A program made the translations under genes and the position numbers. The notes under the pieces were generated by a model. That model worked only from the letters and a program-made list of their open reading frames with translations. It had not been told where the DNA came from and ran no database searches. A stretch of 22,310 nt of DNA from Candidatus Bipolaricaulia bacterium (GTDB taxonomy: Bacteria; Bipolaricaulota; Bipolaricaulia; JBHIAT01), in NCBI GenBank assembly GCA_046758705.1, contig JBHIAT010000044.1:1-22310 (forward strand). Reading direction: 5' to 3'. Within the stretch, counting starts at the first letter, position 1, and the number at the start of each line of letters is the position of its first letter. Positions 4,725 to 19,875 of the stretch are shown here, one piece after another.

Positions 4725-6158
4725 TTAGCCATCATCAACCAAGCCTCGCGCAAACTGTACAAAGCGGTATACATCGGCAAAGTTGCTCACCAGGCCAACT
4801 GACACACGCACCGCGCCGGAGCTTTTGTCGTCAATGCACAAACGGAAATCGTCGAGCGTCAGTCGCTGTTGATGTTGAGGCTGAGTGAAGCAAGCCACGA
4901 GTTCGGTCTGGGAGAGGCCGAGGGCGATTTCGCCGCCGCCGGGGTTACAAAAGCAGCCCGTGCGCAGCGAGATATTGGCTTTATTCGCCTGTGCTGCGAC
5001 CAGCTGGTGGTCTATGCACTGCCCCCTGGGGTCGTAGAAGTTCATTGTCACCGCGCCGCCGCGCAGGTGGGTATCTGGCGGGCCGTACAGGCGTATTAGC
5101 GGTTTGCCGTTGCTGTGGCGCAAATCCAGCAGTTTGTCCAGCAACCAGCCGGTCAGGCAGCACACCCTCTCGTGAATGATCTCTATTCCAATCGCGGTGA
5201 TGTGCTTCAAGCCAATTTTTACGGCGGGTAGAGCAAGGTAATTGACGGTGCCGTCTTCAAATGCGACCTCGCCTTCAGCCAGGTAATGTTTGTCGCCCTG
5301 TACCGAGGCGACGGTGATCGTACCGCCGGCGAACCACGGACGGCGCAGTTTGGCTAGGGAATCTCTGCGGGCTAACAGGCATCCCACTCCGGTAGGATAA
5401 CCAAAGATCTTGTAAAAGGAGAGTGGTACAAAGTCTGGCTTCCATCGGTTCAAATCCAAGTGATTGGTGGGAACGAACGCAGCGGCATCTAGCAGCACGT
5501 CCCAGCCCTTGGCCTGCGCTTGGCCGATCCATTCTAGAGGATGTTGTACGCCCGAAAAGTTGGACTGCGCGTTGTGGCCGCCGGGCCGTGCCTGGCCGAG
5601 GTAGTCTGCCAATTGAGCCTCGTCCATGCGCATGTCCGGCAGAACTAGTGGTACGTAGGTGATTTGTGCTCCGCGGGCGCGAGCAAACTCGCGGATCCCG
5701 TTCACCGAGTTATGATTGTCGAACGTCAGCAGGTAGGGGTCACCAGCGCCGAAGGGGTAGGACTCGCCCACCAGTTTGAGTGCTCCGCTGGCGTTAGTGG
5801 TGAAAATCACTACATATTCTTCAGGGGAGGCGTTGAAGAATTCGAGCACATATTGTCGGGCCTGTTCCACCAGATGGGTCATCGCCAGCGAGGTCGGGTT
5901 GTGGGAGTGCGGGTTGCCGAACACGTTTTCGCACAGCAGGGCCATGTGCTCACGCACTTGACAGTCGGCATACAGGCTGCCGCCGGTGTAGTCCAGGTAG
6001 ATGTGACCCTGCTCGTCCAGGCGGCTATATTCGTTGGCGCGTAGTGTGTCTATCTGTTGAGTCGTTTCAAAGGCGGGATAGGCGTGCAAAAAGCCAGCCA
6101 ATGCTGCGTCCATGCTTTCAGTGCTAAACTCATCTGGGGTGTCGTTTTTTGCTAGCAT
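4725..6158 (-). CDS. Class V PLP-dependent enzyme, molybdenum cofactor sulfurase (MOCOS/ABA3 NifS-like domain) type
   Basis: Motifs HIYLDYTG, GNPHS, DNHNSVNGIRE, LLDAAAF, SFYKIFGYPTG (PLP lysine), FEDGT and LRTGCFCNPG (persulfide Cys). GGGAGA RBS upstream. No MOSC domain attached. Confidence 0.88.
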   Translation of the reverse strand: MLAKNDTPDEFSTESMDAALAGFLHAYPAFETTQQIDTLRANEYSRLDEQGHIYLDYTGGSLYADCQVREHMALLCENVFGNPHSHNPTSLAMTHLVEQARQYVLEFFNASPEEYVVIFTTNASGALKLVGESYPFGAGDPYLLTFDNHNSVNGIREFARARGAQITYVPLVLPDMRMDEAQLADYLGQARPGGHNAQSNFSGVQHPLEWIGQAQAKGWDVLLDAAAFVPTNHLDLNRWKPDFVPLSFYKIFGYPTGVGCLLARRDSLAKLRRPWFAGGTITVASVQGDKHYLAEGEVAFEDGTVNYLALPAVKIGLKHITAIGIEIIHERVCCLTGWLLDKLLDLRHSNGKPLIRLYGPPDTHLRGGAVTMNFYDPRGQCIDHQLVAAQANKANISLRTGCFCNPGGGEIALGLSQTELVACFTQPQHQQRLTLDDFRLCIDDKSSGAVRVSVGLVSNFADVYRFVQFARGLVDDG

Positions 6159-9399: not shown

Positions 9400-10407
9400 T
9401 CAAGATCGTATTGTGTGTTCATCAACCTCGAACTGCTTTCCTAGAATCGTCTCAATGACCTCGATGTTTGCCCGCATGTGATCAGTCATTTCCCGATAGT
9501 GGAACGCACCACCGAAGATCGCAATGTATGGAAGGATCTGGTCACACATATGGCGGTCGAGCGTCGCCCCAGAGACAAGCTCCTCAATTAAATCCTCAGC
9601 GGCCTCCTGCCCAACAATCTCGGAGGGTTTTCCTCGCTCCCCAAGAGCGCTAGCACCGATCACGGTTCGTTCATGCTCGGCCCACAGGACTATCCCGGAT
9701 CCCGGCGATGCCGTGTCCCGATACTCGGCACGGACCCCAACCTGCAGATTTGAAAACCGATCGACCAACGTCTGGCGGGTAGCGCGTGCCTGGCGCTCGG
9801 CGACCTTCGCGTTCTTCAGGTGGGTCGAGGCGAGCGAGCGACCCCGGATTCGCAACAGCTTTCCCCGCTCCTCCAGATCAACCCGGTGCTTGGCCTCGGG
9901 CGGATAGAACCGGGCAATCACCCGAGCCCCACCCTTAGGATAGAATCCATCCCGATCCACATGGAGCTTGGATCGATGCCCGAATCGTTTGAGGATGCGA
10001 AACTTCACGTAGGTTAGATAGGGTGCAGGTGGCGCCCACTTGCCAAATGTTGCACCACCGTTGATCCGAACCGCGACCGGTGTTGTTGCTTTTAAACAAG
10101 CAAGCTGGATCGGTTGGAGTGCCAGCCCGATCGCCCCGGCCGTGGGAATTTTTATCGAGATCGTCTTCCTGCGGATCTCACCGGGGTAGAACTCGACGGT
10201 CTCCGAACCGAACTCCATACCCACCACTCGATCGGCACACAGTTCAACGACCGCTTTGATCCCGGCAAGATGTTGGTGCTGGAGCCCAGATTTGGGCCGT
10301 GTCCGTCGGATGTGGATGATGCGCACCGGCACCCCGATCACCGCCGCGAGTCCGACCGCAATCCGGACAACGGACCCCCCACCGCGTGAGCCGTCGATCT
10401 CGATCAT
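9400..10407 (-). CDS. rtcA: RNA 3'-terminal phosphate cyclase
   Basis: MIEIDGSRGGGSVVR, GLQHQHL, GFYPKGG, VAERQ, SPGSGI, LGERGKPSEIVG, DRHMCDQ, TDHMRAN (His that is adenylylated in RtcA). Confidence 0.95.
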   Translation of the reverse strand: MIEIDGSRGGGSVVRIAVGLAAVIGVPVRIIHIRRTRPKSGLQHQHLAGIKAVVELCADRVVGMEFGSETVEFYPGEIRRKTISIKIPTAGAIGLALQPIQLACLKATTPVAVRINGGATFGKWAPPAPYLTYVKFRILKRFGHRSKLHVDRDGFYPKGGARVIARFYPPEAKHRVDLEERGKLLRIRGRSLASTHLKNAKVAERQARATRQTLVDRFSNLQVGVRAEYRDTASPGSGIVLWAEHERTVIGASALGERGKPSEIVGQEAAEDLIEELVSGATLDRHMCDQILPYIAIFGGAFHYREMTDHMRANIEVIETILGKQFEVDEHTIRS

Positions 10408-14079: not shown

Positions 14080-15489
14080 ATGAGCGACGATATTCGATTC
14101 TACCGAGATCAGATTAAGGTGTTCCAGGCGATCAGCCGGTTGCTGGAACGATCGATCTCCCCGGGCCACGTGCTGGAGGAGACTCTGTGGCTTATCGATA
14201 ACCTGCTGAGAGCGGACGGCAGCTCGATCGTGATCCACGATGAGCAGCAAACAGACCAGCTGGTCTTCAGGACCGTCAGCGGTGGGATGAAGGGGATGCT
14301 CGAAGGGCAGAGGATGCCGGTGAACCAGGGGATCGTCGGCTGGGTGATACGCAACGGCAAACCCTTGAATATCAGCAATCCCGAGGAGGATCCCAGGTTC
14401 TACCGGAAGATGGATGAGAGCATCGGTTACCAGACCGAAAACGTCCTGTGCGTCCCACTGAAGCTGAAGAACCGAACGATCGGAGCGATCGAGCTCATCA
14501 ACAAACGAGATAGGCCGGGGTTCACTGACGAAGATCAAAAAATGGTGACCGCCATCGCCGGCCAGACAGCCATCCTCCTCGAGAACGTCCATCTCGAGGA
14601 TTTAGAATATCTGAACAAAGTCATCCGATCCCTCAACGAGGCGGCGAACCTGGAGAAGTTGCTAAACATCGCCCTGCAATGTGGGATTGAACTCGTACCC
14701 GGTGCCGAATGTGGCTTCTTTACGCTTCTAGATGAGGAAAACGGAGAGTTCGAACTGCGAGCAACGGTCGAGTTGACTCCACAGGAGCTCGACCGATTCT
14801 CCTCAGGGGAGCCAGCTGAGCCATTCGCCGCCTCGATATCGATCCCCATCGAACAAGCAGGGAGGGTAATCGGGTACCTCAACCTCTGTCATCGGACCGA
14901 TCCGAACGCGTTCGATGAGCAGGACGTCAGTCGGGTCAGTAAGCTGGTTCCGGAGATCAACCTCGCGATCGAGCGCGTCCGAGAGCGGGAACGACTGAAG
15001 GAGATGGCCAGAAAGGATCAGTTGACCGGGCTCTACAACCGCCATTTCTTTAACGAGATCATCGTCCGGGAGCGGAACCGGTCTCGAAGATACAAGCACC
15101 CGATCTCCCTCCTGTTGCTGGATGTGGACGGGTTTAAACAGATCAACGATGAGTTCGGCCATCAGATGGGGGATCGGGTGCTCAAACAGGTGGCTGACCT
15201 GGTGCAACGACAGGTTCGGGGGGTCGATATGGTGATTCGATACGGTGGGGATGAGTTCCTGGTGATGATGCCCGAGACAGATCATGATGGGGCGTACCAG
15301 GTCGCCACCCGGCTGCGCGAGCGGATCGCCACCTGGCAGGCGGAGCCAGGGTTGGGTCACCTGCGTCCCACGTTGAGCCTCGGCTTCGCCTGCTGGCCTT
15401 GGGATGATGAGCGGGAAGCCCAGGGGGTCCTCGCCGAGGCAGATCGACAGATGTACCAAGATAAGCACGGCAATAATGTGGTATCATAA
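14080..15489 (+). CDS. GAF-GAF-GGDEF diguanylate cyclase
   Basis: GAF1 (GIVGWV...LCVPL...IGAIELINK...FTDED), a shorter GAF2, DQLTGLYNR, DVDGFKQINDEFGHQMGD, I-site RGVD and active site RYGGDEF. Confidence 0.95.
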   Translation: MSDDIRFYRDQIKVFQAISRLLERSISPGHVLEETLWLIDNLLRADGSSIVIHDEQQTDQLVFRTVSGGMKGMLEGQRMPVNQGIVGWVIRNGKPLNISNPEEDPRFYRKMDESIGYQTENVLCVPLKLKNRTIGAIELINKRDRPGFTDEDQKMVTAIAGQTAILLENVHLEDLEYLNKVIRSLNEAANLEKLLNIALQCGIELVPGAECGFFTLLDEENGEFELRATVELTPQELDRFSSGEPAEPFAASISIPIEQAGRVIGYLNLCHRTDPNAFDEQDVSRVSKLVPEINLAIERVRERERLKEMARKDQLTGLYNRHFFNEIIVRERNRSRRYKHPISLLLLDVDGFKQINDEFGHQMGDRVLKQVADLVQRQVRGVDMVIRYGGDEFLVMMPETDHDGAYQVATRLRERIATWQAEPGLGHLRPTLSLGFACWPWDDEREAQGVLAEADRQMYQDKHGNNVVS

Positions 15490-17002: not shown

Positions 17003-18049
17003 TCATGATACAGTGGCCTCCTCAACTTGGCGACGGGTGATCCGCCTGCCAATCACCTCGGCGATCCGTCCCAGTTCATCCATCAGCCGGATGAAATCCT
17101 CGGGAAGGAGCGCCTGAGCGCCGTCACATAATGCGTTCCCCGGATCGTGATGGATCTCGACGAGCAGTCCATCCGCCCCGGCCGCCACCCCAGCTCGCGC
17201 GAGTGCCATCACCGGTTTTCGGATCCCCGCCGCGTGGCTCGGATCGACGATGATCGGCAAATGAGATCGCTCTTTGATCGCCGGGATCGCTGACACATCG
17301 AGTAGGAACCGGTGATGGTCGCCGAAGCTGCGGATCCCCCGCTCACACAGGGTGACCTGCTCGTTCCCCTCGGCCATGATGTACTCAGCAGCCATGAGCA
17401 GTTCCTTAATCGTCGCCGCCATACCGCGTTTGAGCAGGACCGGTCGGTCAACGTTGCCAACCGCCTTGAGCAAATCGTAGTTCTGCATGTTCCGGGTGCC
17501 GATCTGCAGGATGTCGGCATACTCGGCGACCAGCGCCACCTGGTCGACCGCCCGAACCTCGGTGACGATCAGCAGACCGTGGGCATCGGCCGCCTCCCGC
17601 ATCATCCGTAGGCCTGCCGCCCCGAGACCCTGAAAACTGTAGGGGGAAGTCCGCGGTTTGAACGCCCCACCCCGCAGTACCTTCGCCCCTGCCGCAGCCA
17701 CGATTCGGGCGATCGCCTGGATCTGTTCCTCGCTCTCGATCGTACACGGACCGGCCATCATCACCACCTCATCACCGCCGATCCGGACACCGTCAAGCTC
17801 AATGACCGTCCCTTCCGGTTTGAATCCACGGCTGGCAAGTTTGTAGGGCTCGGTGATCTCCAGCACCTCGTGGACGCCGTCAAGCACCTCGAGTTCCCGG
17901 GCGTCGCCCCCCTCTGGTTCGCCAATCGCCCCGAGAATCGTTCGGGTCACCCCCGTCACCCGATGAACCTGAAACCCAAATGCCTTCAACTTATGGGTCG
18001 CCGCCTCGATCTGCACTTCGGTCGCGTTCGGTTTCATCACCACAACCAT
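17003..18049 (-). CDS. aroF: DAHP synthase type I-beta with N-terminal ACT/ferredoxin-like regulatory domain
   Basis: MVVVMK N-terminal domain, AGPCTIES, RGGAFKPRTSPYSFQG, QIGTRNMQNY, LLKRG, LCERGIR, DPSHAAG, ALCDGAQ. Confidence 0.96.
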   Translation of the reverse strand: MVVVMKPNATEVQIEAATHKLKAFGFQVHRVTGVTRTILGAIGEPEGGDARELEVLDGVHEVLEITEPYKLASRGFKPEGTVIELDGVRIGGDEVVMMAGPCTIESEEQIQAIARIVAAAGAKVLRGGAFKPRTSPYSFQGLGAAGLRMMREAADAHGLLIVTEVRAVDQVALVAEYADILQIGTRNMQNYDLLKAVGNVDRPVLLKRGMAATIKELLMAAEYIMAEGNEQVTLCERGIRSFGDHHRFLLDVSAIPAIKERSHLPIIVDPSHAAGIRKPVMALARAGVAAGADGLLVEIHHDPGNALCDGAQALLPEDFIRLMDELGRIAEVIGRRITRRQVEEATVS

Positions 18050-18157
18050 CTTCTTGAACCCCCCTTTCGGTCTCTGACAGATGGAAGAACATGGACATAC
18101 ACCGCTTTTGTCCTAGAACACTTCAAAAAGAGTTTGGCGGAATCGGAGGTTGGTGAA

Positions 18158-18265
18158 TTATGCCCCTTGCGGGGCAAAATAGGAGGCAAAGAAGACAAAC
18201 CAGAAGAATCGAGTTGAGATGCTGCTTGTGAGATTCTCCTTCAGGTGCTGCGGTCCACTATGCAT
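18158..18265 (-). CDS. Putative aroF leader (attenuator) peptide, 35 aa: MHSGPQHLKENLTSSISTRFFWFVFFASYFAPQGA
   Basis: GGAGG RBS at 18277-18273, 7 nt before ATG 18265. Eight of codons 20-30 are aromatic (6 Phe, 1 Trp, 1 Tyr) and none of codons 1-19 are. The stop lies 108 nt upstream of aroF on the same strand. Confidence 0.8.
   Translation of the reverse strand: MHSGPQHLKENLTSSISTRFFWFVFFASYFAPQGA
18161..18176 (-). promoter_or_regulatory. GNRA-capped hairpin (UGCCCC-GCAA-GGGGCA) over the last leader codons
   Basis: Perfect 6-bp inverted repeat with a GCAA loop on the minus strand. No U-tract follows it. Confidence 0.65.
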
Positions 18266-18267
18266 GC

Positions 18268-18313
18268 CCACACCTCCCTCATACTGGTTTTTGCTATCAT
18301 ACCACACCTCCCT
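18268..18313. repeat. 12-bp direct repeat CCACACCTCCCT (minus strand AGGGAGGTGTGG) x2
   Basis: Copies at 18268-18279 (leader RBS) and 18302-18313 (promoter spacer). Confidence 0.85.
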
Positions 18314-18325
18314 ACTCTCTGTCAA
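18296..18325 (-). promoter_or_regulatory. sigma70-like promoter for the leader-aroF transcript
   Basis: Minus strand TTGACA (18325-18320), 18-bp spacer, TGg-TATGAT (18301-18296). It overlaps the 3' end of the glutaredoxin gene. Confidence 0.78.
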
Positions 18326-18557
18326 GCGTGAGCAACTCCTGAAGCGCCGCTGCATCGACCGCCCCCAAGAAGCGATCGACGCCGTCAACGGCGATCACCG
18401 GGATATCGTACCGGTATTTCTCATAGAGCTTGGGATCTTTCGTGATATCGACGATTTTGAGCCCGAAATCGAACTCTCCTTGGAGACTGCGAACCACCCG
18501 CTCCGCCTTGTGACACACGGGGCAATACGGCTTGCTGTAAACGGTGATCTCGGTCAT
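18312..18557 (-). CDS. Glutaredoxin-like protein (DUF836 type)
   Basis: 81 aa from ATG 18557: ITVYSKPYCPVC (CxxC), VDIT...LYEKYRYDIPVIAVDG (cis-Pro motif). Confidence 0.88.
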   Translation of the reverse strand: MTEITVYSKPYCPVCHKAERVVRSLQGEFDFGLKIVDITKDPKLYEKYRYDIPVIAVDGVDRFLGAVDAAALQELLTLDRE

Positions 18558-18585
18558 GGATCTATTGAAATACAGAGAAGAACTT

Positions 18586-19875
18586 TCAAGGGTTCCTCCT
18601 GTATTCAGGCTCAGGTTTCGATCGCAGCAGGTTGAAGGCGTAAACAGCATTAAAGACGAACGCGGCCTGACCCTGCCGGTAGACGATCCCGTCTTGGCGT
18701 CTCACGAAATCGAGGACCGCTTCAGACGCCTCATCCGGGCAGCAGGGGATCCCCCACCCTCGGTCCATCGCCAGGGTCATCATCTCTAGATCGGCCGGAT
18801 GATCGCCGAGGATGGCGGCACAAGGGTGCTCGATCTTCAGTGCCTCGATCGCCCGGACGAGACCGGCGGCCTTGTTCAGTTCCTTGGGGACTAGCCCGAC
18901 CGCGTCCGCCGGGAAGTAGATCAGATCGATCTCGTCAAGCAATGCCTCCAACGCGGCCGAGACCGATACAGGGCTCCTCCTCGATGGCTCCAGAATCTCG
19001 TTCAGCCAGGGATAGTTGCGACGGTAATGGGCCGTCAGCTCGTTCAACACCTCGTTGGGCTCCTCCCCGATGGTCTCCGCCGCCACTGTGGCCAACCCCC
19101 TCAGTAGCGCTCTCATCATCGTCTCGCTCGCTTCCAGCGCCCTCTGGGATCCGTCTGGATCGTTGGGCTTCAGCGTGATGTTGAACTCACTCCCTTTAAG
19201 ATGAAAGTCTCGATAGCCGCCAGCGAGCTCTCGGGTAACCAACTCAGAGATCTGCTTCTCCACCCGGTCGAATAGATTGAGAACCTTCTCATCCAACTCA
19301 GCGTAGAGCAGGATCTTCTCTCCACCCGGCGTGAAAATCCCCGCCCCTTGCTCATAAATGATCGAGAATCGCCCTGAGCCAACCATCTCTCGACCGAACG
19401 CTTGGATGATCAAACCCTGGATGTTCTCGAGCGTCTGACCGGTGTTGATGATGAACCGCATTTTGGGATATCGATGATAGAGCCGCTTCAGAGCGAAGAT
19501 CGTCGCCTCGGGGATCTCGTTGTCGGTGCCGCGCAGCCACCGCAACGTCTCATCGACGTCGGTGACGATCAGGCGGATCGGATGAATTCCTCGATCCAGC
19601 AGCCGACACGCCGCTTCCACCTCCGAGAGGGTGTTGTAGCACAGGATCTCTTTGCATTTCTTCTGCACGTCGGTCGACAGAGAGCCATTAGCCAACCACT
19701 CGTCGATCGCCGCGTCCATGCGGCTGAGCTGCTCTTTAAGCCGAGGCTCACATTCCACCCCTAGCCCGCTGAGCTGATCGACGATCGTATGAAGCCGCTG
19801 ATATTTCGAAATATCGATCGCATCGTAAACCGCCCTTAAGCTTTGGTATACTTGATTGCTGAGACGAGCTTCCAT
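18586..19875 (-). CDS. HAD superfamily hydrolase resembling a haloarchaeal family
   Basis: HAD motif I DVDETLR, motif II INTGQ, motif III NKAAG, motif IV GDHPAD, with a ~100-aa helical N-terminal extension. AGGAAGG upstream. Confidence 0.85.
   Translation of the reverse strand: MEARLSNQVYQSLRAVYDAIDISKYQRLHTIVDQLSGLGVECEPRLKEQLSRMDAAIDEWLANGSLSTDVQKKCKEILCYNTLSEVEAACRLLDRGIHPIRLIVTDVDETLRWLRGTDNEIPEATIFALKRLYHRYPKMRFIINTGQTLENIQGLIIQAFGREMVGSGRFSIIYEQGAGIFTPGGEKILLYAELDEKVLNLFDRVEKQISELVTRELAGGYRDFHLKGSEFNITLKPNDPDGSQRALEASETMMRALLRGLATVAAETIGEEPNEVLNELTAHYRRNYPWLNEILEPSRRSPVSVSAALEALLDEIDLIYFPADAVGLVPKELNKAAGLVRAIEALKIEHPCAAILGDHPADLEMMTLAMDRGWGIPCCPDEASEAVLDFVRRQDGIVYRQGQAAFVFNAVYAFNLLRSKPEPEYRRNP

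Follow-up and report, generated by a model that had tools for sequence, protein, structure and literature searches.

The window analysed here, which is the whole stretch of 22,310 nucleotides (nt) from a Candidatus Bipolaricaulia bacterium (contig JBHIAT010000044.1, positions 1 to 22,310), carries on its minus strand a short open reading frame (ORF) directly before aroF, the gene for 3-deoxy-D-arabino-heptulosonate 7-phosphate (DAHP) synthase. Judging from its codons and from their conservation, this ORF is very probably a translated leader-peptide sensor of the charging of aromatic tRNAs, mainly that for phenylalanine, and controls the DAHP synthase gene. Its output may be that a ribosome parked on the leader unmasks the ribosome-binding site of aroF, a proposal whose chances we put slightly below even. 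The statement as a whole, namely a phenylalanine-leaning, ribosome-read gauge with this output and perhaps with a contribution from Rho, has about an even chance of being right. From the parts of the leader, their conservation and their complementarity, we infer that the leader is translated, that ribosomes stall on it, and in which direction and how strongly this affects aroF.

The aromatic leader of aroF

The promoter, the GGAGG ribosome-binding site, the 35-codon ORF, the aromatic cluster at codons 20-30 and the 108-nt gap to aroF had been described in the original prediction, and all of them were confirmed base for base. Together with the elements discussed below they are, in the order of transcription:

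18296..18325, minus strand: sigma-70-type promoter, TTGACA at 18325-18320, 18-nt spacer, TGg-TATGAT at 18304-18296
18273..18277, minus strand: leader Shine-Dalgarno sequence (SD), GGAGG, 7 nt 5′ of the leader ATG
18158..18265, minus strand: leader ORF, ATG at 18265, 35 codons, TAA at 18160-18158
18176..18208, minus strand: aromatic cluster FFWFVFFASYF, leader codons 20-30, presumed stall zone
18180..18199, minus strand: pyrimidine-rich segment complementary to the aroF initiation region, including CCUCC at 18186-18182
18157..18180, minus strand: GC hairpin ending at the leader stop codon, -12.6 kcal/mol
18157-18050, minus strand: leader-aroF spacer, 108 nt, up to the aroF ATG at 18049
18066..18157, minus strand: untranslated spacer segment, C 0.31 and G 0.13 in its first 45 nt, possible Rho loading site
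18093..18113, minus strand: weak hairpin of GGACA, an 11-nt loop and UGUCC, followed by AUGUUCUUCC; not a canonical terminator
18045..18065, minus strand: aroF initiation region, SD GGGGGG at 18064-18059, AUG at 18049-18047
17003..18049, minus strand: aroF, DAHP synthase of 348 residues with an N-terminal ferredoxin-like domain

The leader ORF reads MHSGPQHLKENLTSSISTRFFWFVFFASYFAPQGA, then TAA, and has no match to a Pfam family. Its cluster contains six Phe codons, one Trp codon and one Tyr codon, that is, eight aromatic codons out of 11, and the rest of the ORF is free of aromatics. This density is unique in the genome: among the 55,599 short ORFs that the six frames of the 3.7-Mb assembly contain at 12-80 codons, the leader ranks first and is the only one with eight aromatics in 11 residues, the runners-up being seven ORFs with seven aromatics and 51 with six. 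The product of aroF matches the Pfam families DAHP_synth_1 (E 2.6e-74) and DAHP_snth_FXD (E 2.7e-19); the gene next to it is convergent, which makes aroF monocistronic here. The leader promoter agrees with 11 of the 12 consensus positions and includes a TG extension, and promoters of the same type are found 5′ of related leaders.

The promoter overlaps the stop codon (18314-18312) of an upstream glutaredoxin-like gene (18312-18650, minus strand; Pfam Glrx-like, E 5.8e-18). Since this gene ends inside the leader promoter, read-through into the leader is possible. The organism is uncultured and its genome is metagenome-assembled; the DNA of the window is present in hydrothermal-vent metagenome runs from one study.

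Conservation in Bipolaricaulota

A DAHP synthase match was found in 67 of 184 genomes of the phylum, upstream DNA was taken for all full-length matches, and the counts cover the 69 loci with enough upstream DNA. A fixed rule was applied, by which an ATG-started ORF of 12-70 codons had to lie on the same strand, no more than 580 nt upstream, and to have at least four aromatic residues in some 11-residue stretch. Such an ORF occurs at 43 of the 69 loci versus nine of 69 when the opposite strand of these regions is read, and DAHP synthase loci of other phyla gave 14 of 148 in the sense and six of 148 in the antisense direction. With the threshold raised to at least six aromatics, 23 of the 69 phylum loci remained in sense and four of 69 in antisense, together with two of 148 from other phyla. 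The search for aromatic-rich upstream ORFs in relatives, which had been proposed as a check of the leader, was thus borne out. Across the phylum these ORFs each have their own ribosome-binding site. The loci outside the rule come mostly from a single family whose pheA abuts aroF, where a leader, if there is one, would be expected further upstream; a few others are homologous leaders with just three aromatic codons or with a start codon other than ATG. From these counts, DAHP synthase genes of the phylum appear to be generally under ribosome-mediated attenuation, the leader of the window being one case among them. A "1 TGA" that was flagged inside many of the DAHP synthase matches turned out, in the one locus translated (L015), to be the stop codon.

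Between relatives, the N-terminal parts of the leaders vary freely, and Phe/Tyr exchanges and synonymous TTT/TTC changes preserve the aromatic cluster, a pattern by which the codon identity of the cluster is evidently under selection. The Trp and Tyr positions of the window cluster are not conserved among relatives. Given this and the six Phe codons against a single Trp and a single Tyr codon, the idea that one leader integrates the supply of all three amino acids at the entry of the pathway is not supported as it stands. Close relatives of the window's own lineage were not found among genomes and metagenomes, the best DAHP synthase identity being 67-68%, and the 40 nearest genomes are all only same-class relatives.

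A comparable element stands at locus L069, on an AT-rich contig labelled uncultured Methanosarcinales archaeon, where a 24-codon ORF very rich in Phe, Tyr, Trp and Asn lies 99-170 nt upstream of DAHP synthase; behind this ORF come two A/U-rich hairpins that overlap each other and carry U-tracts. By its appearance, it looks like an attenuator outside the phylum.

Leader architectures and terminators

At least four leader architectures can be told apart in the phylum. That of the window is found at 19 loci in about ten lineages; here the leader lies directly before aroF, and its stop codon is 73-133 nt from the aroF ATG. Start codon, SD and open frame are preserved at all 19 loci and also in the other classes, and a purine-rich SD-like motif precedes nearly all of the 19 leaders (by eye, in the 18 nt upstream of the ATG). 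In a second family, the gene order is leader, chorismate mutase and aroF, and a leader of about 40 codons ends in a Tyr/Phe run, after which come a long hairpin over the stop codon and then a hairpin-plus-U-tract terminator. A third family has the same gene order, a leader that ends with Tyr-Tyr-Phe, and a GC terminator of 10 base pairs (bp) with about -23 kcal/mol and six U. Taken together, these two families have a hairpin directly before a TTTT run at 18 of the 22 loci examined, and at 17 of the 22 the terminator hairpins lie at -11 to -24 kcal/mol. The fourth architecture belongs to a second DAHP synthase paralogue of yet another family, which has a Trp-triplet leader and a canonical terminator.

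Some details of these families may be added. Where chorismate mutase stands between leader and aroF in the family of L005-L018 and L197-L206, the leader is about 470 nt upstream of aroF and its ATG follows the TATAAT box of the promoter (TTGAAGGC-17-TATAAT) by about 9 nt; therefore, the leader mRNA of this family may be leaderless or nearly so. In the second DAHP synthase copies of five genomes of one family (L228-L232), the Trp triplet is preceded by Phe and lies about 90-230 nt upstream, the terminator consists of a 9-bp GC-rich stem and a U-tract, and the first copy in the same genomes is directly behind pheA.

Paralogues with differing leaders, one Phe-rich with a final Trp and the other rich in Trp and Tyr, occur in one genome (G110; L196 and L207, on two contigs), and L208 (G109) is grouped with them. 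Because two paralogues in one genome carry different leaders, their sequences suggest paralogue-specific sensing.

In the window, a terminator scan found no terminator-like site in 18050-18265. The downstream complementarity of the arms of the stop-codon hairpin is no better than chance (mean z -0.10 and -0.11; 19 loci), and because neither arm has a downstream partner beyond chance, there is no antiterminator topology. Since a terminator/antiterminator pair is missing, the leader is not a transcription attenuator of the classical trpL/pheL type, and the classical four-segment scheme does not apply to the window. A search of Rfam, with its leader and T-box families, gave no gathering-score match in the window and only chance-level matches at E up to 10 (17950-18400), and the whole-leader fold is no more stable than shuffled sequences (z +1.08). 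The core of the original prediction, a leader peptide that senses aromatic amino acids, is strongly supported by the conservation in the phylum and, in sister families, by the canonical terminators behind the leaders, but its form as a classical transcription attenuator had to be given up.

The idea that terminator-less leaders track terminator-poor genomes gained no support from a crude motif count, which does not discriminate. By this crude measure, terminator-like motifs in the window's genome stand after 27 of 400 long ORFs versus inside 23 of 400, and eight other genomes of the phylum, with either leader type, likewise have no excess of such motifs after ORFs. Masked equilibrium folding of the terminator-bearing families gave an intact terminator in all states, and stalling brought no upstream capture of its 5′ arm.

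Complementarity between leader and aroF ribosome-binding site

In the window, the CCUCC of the pyrimidine-rich segment makes up the codons of Ala27 and Ser28, between Phe26 and Tyr29 of the cluster, and is complementary to an SD (anti-SD). Anti-SD 5-mers (CCUCC, CUCCU or UCCUC) were counted in the 49 nt ending at the hairpin. They are present, inside the aromatic cluster or shortly ahead of it, in 19 of 19 terminator-less leaders, where 7.1 are expected from same-letter shuffles, and in none of the 21 leaders of two terminator-bearing families, where 1.5 are expected. The predicted duplex between 18199-18180 and 18065-18045, which takes in both the SD and the AUG of aroF, has 17 bp, six of them G-U, and -20.7 kcal/mol, and it is present in the minimum-free-energy and centroid structures of the window leader. 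Among 2,527 other initiation regions of the genome, 4% pair equally well with the core of this segment and 12% with a wider leader segment. In the RNAalifold consensus of the six relatives of nearest type, GCCUCCU pairs with the aroF SD (GCCUCCU:AGGAGGY). The initiation region of aroF in the window is also predicted to be relatively closed: its openness is 0.22 at the SD and 0.22 at the AUG, compared with 0.42 +/- 0.15 and 0.44 +/- 0.18 for 300 other genes.

A single change touches this segment. In a relative of about 90% identity, represented by one low-depth contig of one vent run, 18198 A>G (plus strand) replaces Phe23 of the leader by Ser and would convert one U-G pair in the proposed duplex to C-G. 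It is the sole leader change among the differences listed for contigs of four DNA runs, and no conclusion is built on it.

Hairpin at the stop codon and the tract behind it

The hairpin of the window has its core at 18176-18161, with GCCCC at 18175-18171, a GCAA loop and GGGGC at 18166-18162. A hairpin in the last leader codons is found at all 19 loci of the class, with a mean of -12.8 kcal/mol; it reaches -10 kcal/mol or lower at 18 of the 19 versus 29% of 1,500 control ORF ends, and at 15 of the 19 the stem reaches the stop codon and either ends there or continues through it. From lineage to lineage the arms vary, CG and GC being exchanged at stem positions 3-5, and because the C-terminal residues change with the hairpin, it is the hairpin RNA and not the peptide tail that is conserved. 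By analogy with the 1:2 hairpin of trp, we infer for it a possible role as a transcription pause that synchronises polymerase and ribosome.

A G-poor, C/A-rich tract follows the hairpin and keeps its place in a lineage whose stop codon lies five codons later. In the first 45 nt past the stop, the G content is 0.16 or less at 13 of the 19 loci. The best C/G ratio over 78 nt is 2.27 in the window, which is the 92nd percentile of 1,035 upstream regions (median 1.31), and ranges from 1.94 to 3.78 in all 19 leaders of the class. A rho gene is present in the window's genome. As far as sequence can tell, Rho and a C-rich, G-poor loading region would provide a precondition, and only that, for Rho-dependent attenuation.

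Proposed mechanism and alternatives

In the mechanism that we propose, when aromatic amino acids are plentiful, the ribosome would traverse codons 20-30, melt the GC hairpin, halt at the TAA and depart. The vacated pyrimidine-rich stretch (18199-18180, with CCUCC) would then pair with the SD and start codon of aroF (18065-18045), so that aroF would be poorly translated, and Rho might additionally cut short the untranslated C-rich RNA. When Phe, Trp or Tyr is short, the ribosome would park on the cluster and cover the anti-SD stretch; the aroF ribosome-binding site would open and DAHP synthase would be made. This output is favoured because the anti-SD word splits the terminator-less leaders (19/19) from the terminator-bearing ones (0/21).

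Several results weigh against such an unmasking. In equilibrium folding, a ribosome-sized mask on the cluster failed to open the aroF SD of the window, whose unpaired probability was 0.20 in the free state, 0.24-0.26 in the stalled state and 0.23 with the ribosome at the stop codon, and over the 19 loci the opening of the SD under the mask was barely visible (from 0.31 to 0.35-0.37). Equilibrium folding cannot reveal kinetic switches. A second partner of the aroF initiation region lies in the spacer (about 18137-18119), and for this reason covering the leader strand alone may not free the SD. The duplex of the window is only marginally above chance, 8% of 300 dinucleotide shuffles being as good, and in a swap of leaders and initiation regions across lineages the cognate pairs (mean -17.3 kcal/mol) did not differ significantly from the non-cognate ones (-16.6 kcal/mol; lineage-level p 0.25). 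No covariation is seen for the helix between SD and anti-SD, because all of its pairs are invariant, and the six G-U pairs would make this long-range helix fragile if the organism grows hot. The pyrimidine-rich codons for Phe, Ser, Pro and Leu themselves raise the odds of an anti-SD word, for which the shuffles control in composition only. Moreover, the unmasking model does not account for the GC hairpin at the stop codon, which is the best-conserved element.

The same sensor could also act through Rho-dependent transcription attenuation, although this seems unlikely to be the principal output. Rho would load on naked pyrimidine- and C-rich RNA once the ribosome has left and would stop the polymerase before or within aroF, and a parked ribosome would mask part of the loading site or keep the polymerase coupled. 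Such a scheme fits with the rho gene, with the absence of a canonical terminator from the leader, with a C/G ratio that is at least 1.94 in all 19 leaders against the genome median, with the G-poor first 45 nt at most of the loci, and with a G-poor, CA-rich tract that keeps its place behind the hairpin despite a displaced stop codon; in addition, the accessible part of Seliverstov et al. proposes Rho for the terminator-less cys leaders of Actinobacteria (PMC1262725). However, a stall up to 30 nt before the stop codon leaves the spacer exposed, so that it is hard to see how the two states would be discriminated, and the C excess is partly due to the Phe/Ser/Pro codons and the anti-SD words, whose split between terminator-less and terminator-bearing leaders Rho leaves unexplained. 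Classical attenuation by way of a weak, non-canonical intrinsic terminator, formed by the hairpin at 18113-18093 and the following AUGUUCUUCC, is very unlikely. A second hairpin does occur 25-50 nt before the aroF SD in each related spacer, with a moderately U-rich tail in several cases (by eye), and true terminators exist in sister families of the phylum, but the terminator scan of the leader came out empty, the hairpin of the window has just 5 pairs and an 11-nt loop, and the arms of the stop-codon hairpin offer no antiterminator topology.

A more radical alternative, which we consider quite unlikely, is an element made of RNA only that would be bound by a protein or a small RNA or act as a thermosensor, with a reading frame that is incidental and an amino-acid supply that is not read by ribosomes. 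In favour of it, the leaders of one genus are conserved nucleotide by nucleotide in their 3′ part, even at synonymous positions, the hairpin and the CA-rich tract stay in place when the stop codon moves, and for the same type of pairing between codon run and SD the authors who described the LEU element favoured protein binding in the accessible part of their paper (PMC1262725). It is, however, at odds with the start codon, SD and open frame kept at 19 of 19 loci and in the other classes, and a need for pyrimidines does not explain the codons for Trp (UGG) and Tyr (UAU/UAC), nor the Trp/Tyr-rich and Trp-triplet leaders of other paralogues, nor the specific association with genes of the aromatic pathway. 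Finally, the ORF might code for a small protein with a function of its own, be it a hydrophobic peptide of the membrane or an arrest peptide of the TnaC kind that senses a metabolite. Its core of 11 hydrophobic residues and, in some relatives, a Pro-stop ending or a Trp-Pro-Pro motif could point in this direction. Pro-stop and Trp-Pro-Pro contexts can slow termination. Nevertheless, a small protein of this sort is highly improbable, for the ORF belongs to no Pfam family and is not conserved beyond the aromatic run and the tail encoded by the hairpin, in which the C-terminal residues vary together with the hairpin; so short a hydrophobic stretch could not cross a membrane, and induction by a free amino acid would be the wrong logic for a biosynthetic gene.

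Comparison with known leader peptides

No characterised mixed aromatic leader on a DAHP synthase gene had been known to the original prediction, but one was described earlier in Corynebacterium glutamicum, where an aroR leader (Phe-Tyr-Phe) lies upstream of aroF and stalling raises expression, as reported in the accessible parts of two papers (PMC11802643, PMC4046766). According to the accessible part of one of them, aroR-aroF is a transcription attenuator that responds to limitation of Phe and not of Tyr (PMC11802643). As far as those parts describe it, the C. glutamicum system resembles the window in having a short mixed-aromatic leader 5′ of a DAHP synthase gene; it differs in belonging to another phylum, no sequence relation having been found. 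In the window, moreover, there are eight aromatic codons, Trp among them, a terminator is missing, and the leader has a GC hairpin at its stop codon as well as an anti-SD word. The AroF of C. glutamicum presumably belongs to another subclass of DAHP synthase.

In translational attenuation of cat/cmlA and erm, a drug-stalled ribosome on the leader alters the access to the downstream ribosome-binding site, and in rtpLP-rtpA of Bacillus subtilis a terminating ribosome sterically blocks it. Unlike in cat/cmlA and erm, the presumed signal in the window is a shortage of charged aromatic tRNA and not a drug. Rho-dependent control by leader peptides is found in tnaC and mgtL, the former of which responds to free Trp and switches on a catabolic operon. 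The window shares with these two a leader ORF that is followed by C-rich, unstructured RNA without an intrinsic terminator.

With trpL, pheL and pheM of enterobacteria, to the extent that the accessible text covers them, the window shares a promoter, an SD, a run of codons for the product and a hairpin that overlaps the end of the ORF (PMC11802643). Unlike them, it has no terminator/antiterminator and no match to a leader family of Rfam, and it regulates the entry enzyme of the pathway instead of a terminal branch. The LEU element, which is located upstream of leuA in Actinobacteria, is closer in one respect: as described in the accessible part of the paper, its run of regulatory codons pairs with the downstream SD and a terminator is absent, as in the window (PMC1262725). 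Its authors favoured a protein model because mutations of the leucine codons left the regulation unaffected, according to the same text (PMC1262725). The LEU element forms a pseudoknot or an alternative hairpin in that account (PMC1262725), whereas the anti-SD of the window lies among aromatic codons beside a simple hairpin, and no pseudoknot was seen. In a literature search that left out most subscription journals, nothing was found on such leaders in Bipolaricaulota/Acetothermia, nor on DAHP synthase leaders beyond aroR of C. glutamicum. The principle of the leader is thus already characterised; the window shows it in a little-studied phylum and in a terminator-less form.

Leader-peptide control of the entry enzyme of aromatic biosynthesis, hitherto characterised in one actinobacterium, would thereby be extended to an uncultured, deep-branching phylum. 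More tentatively, and with odds that we hold to be clearly below even, Bipolaricaulota may possess diversified leaders that are matched to their DAHP synthase paralogues, with Phe-rich, Trp/Tyr-rich and Trp-triplet types on different copies, and one branch of the phylum may have replaced the terminator by an anti-SD stall zone. If this is true, the leader family plays the part that three isoenzymes with specific repressors or feedback play in Escherichia coli, and a starved ribosome directly uncovers the ribosome-binding site of the next gene. The phylum also offers a natural comparison, in which the same sensor is joined either to a canonical terminator or to a terminator-less output, and the question of how terminator-less leader peptides act becomes directly testable. 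For annotation, these small ORFs, which are unannotated, would allow each DAHP synthase paralogue to be assigned the amino acid to which it responds.

Other observations in the genome

In the window's genome, the two chorismate-binding genes, pheA and the second copy of DAHP synthase lack a leader. The second copy (contig C9, 14499-15524, minus strand) carries an N-terminal extension of about 90 residues, itself without a Pfam match at E 0.001, ahead of the ferredoxin-like domain; a TTGACA-17-TAAAAT promoter ends about 9 nt 5′ of its ATG, and no leader peptide is present. Of the seven short ORFs with seven aromatics in 11 residues, two were inspected: the C99 ORFs (two overlapping entries) are antisense to a 230-codon ORF, and the one on C36 has no gene behind it on its own strand; an ORF with six aromatics on contig C23 sits before a RecF-like gene. 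A Trp-rich motif, W-x-[KR]-R-W-F-G-R-G, is common to three short ORFs on C42 (about 15210-15252, plus strand), C109 (about 9795-9987, plus strand) and C181 (about 4842-4920, reverse-complement strand). These ORFs stand directly before or overlap ORFs of 168-192 codons and may be the N-terminal parts of a repeated gene family.

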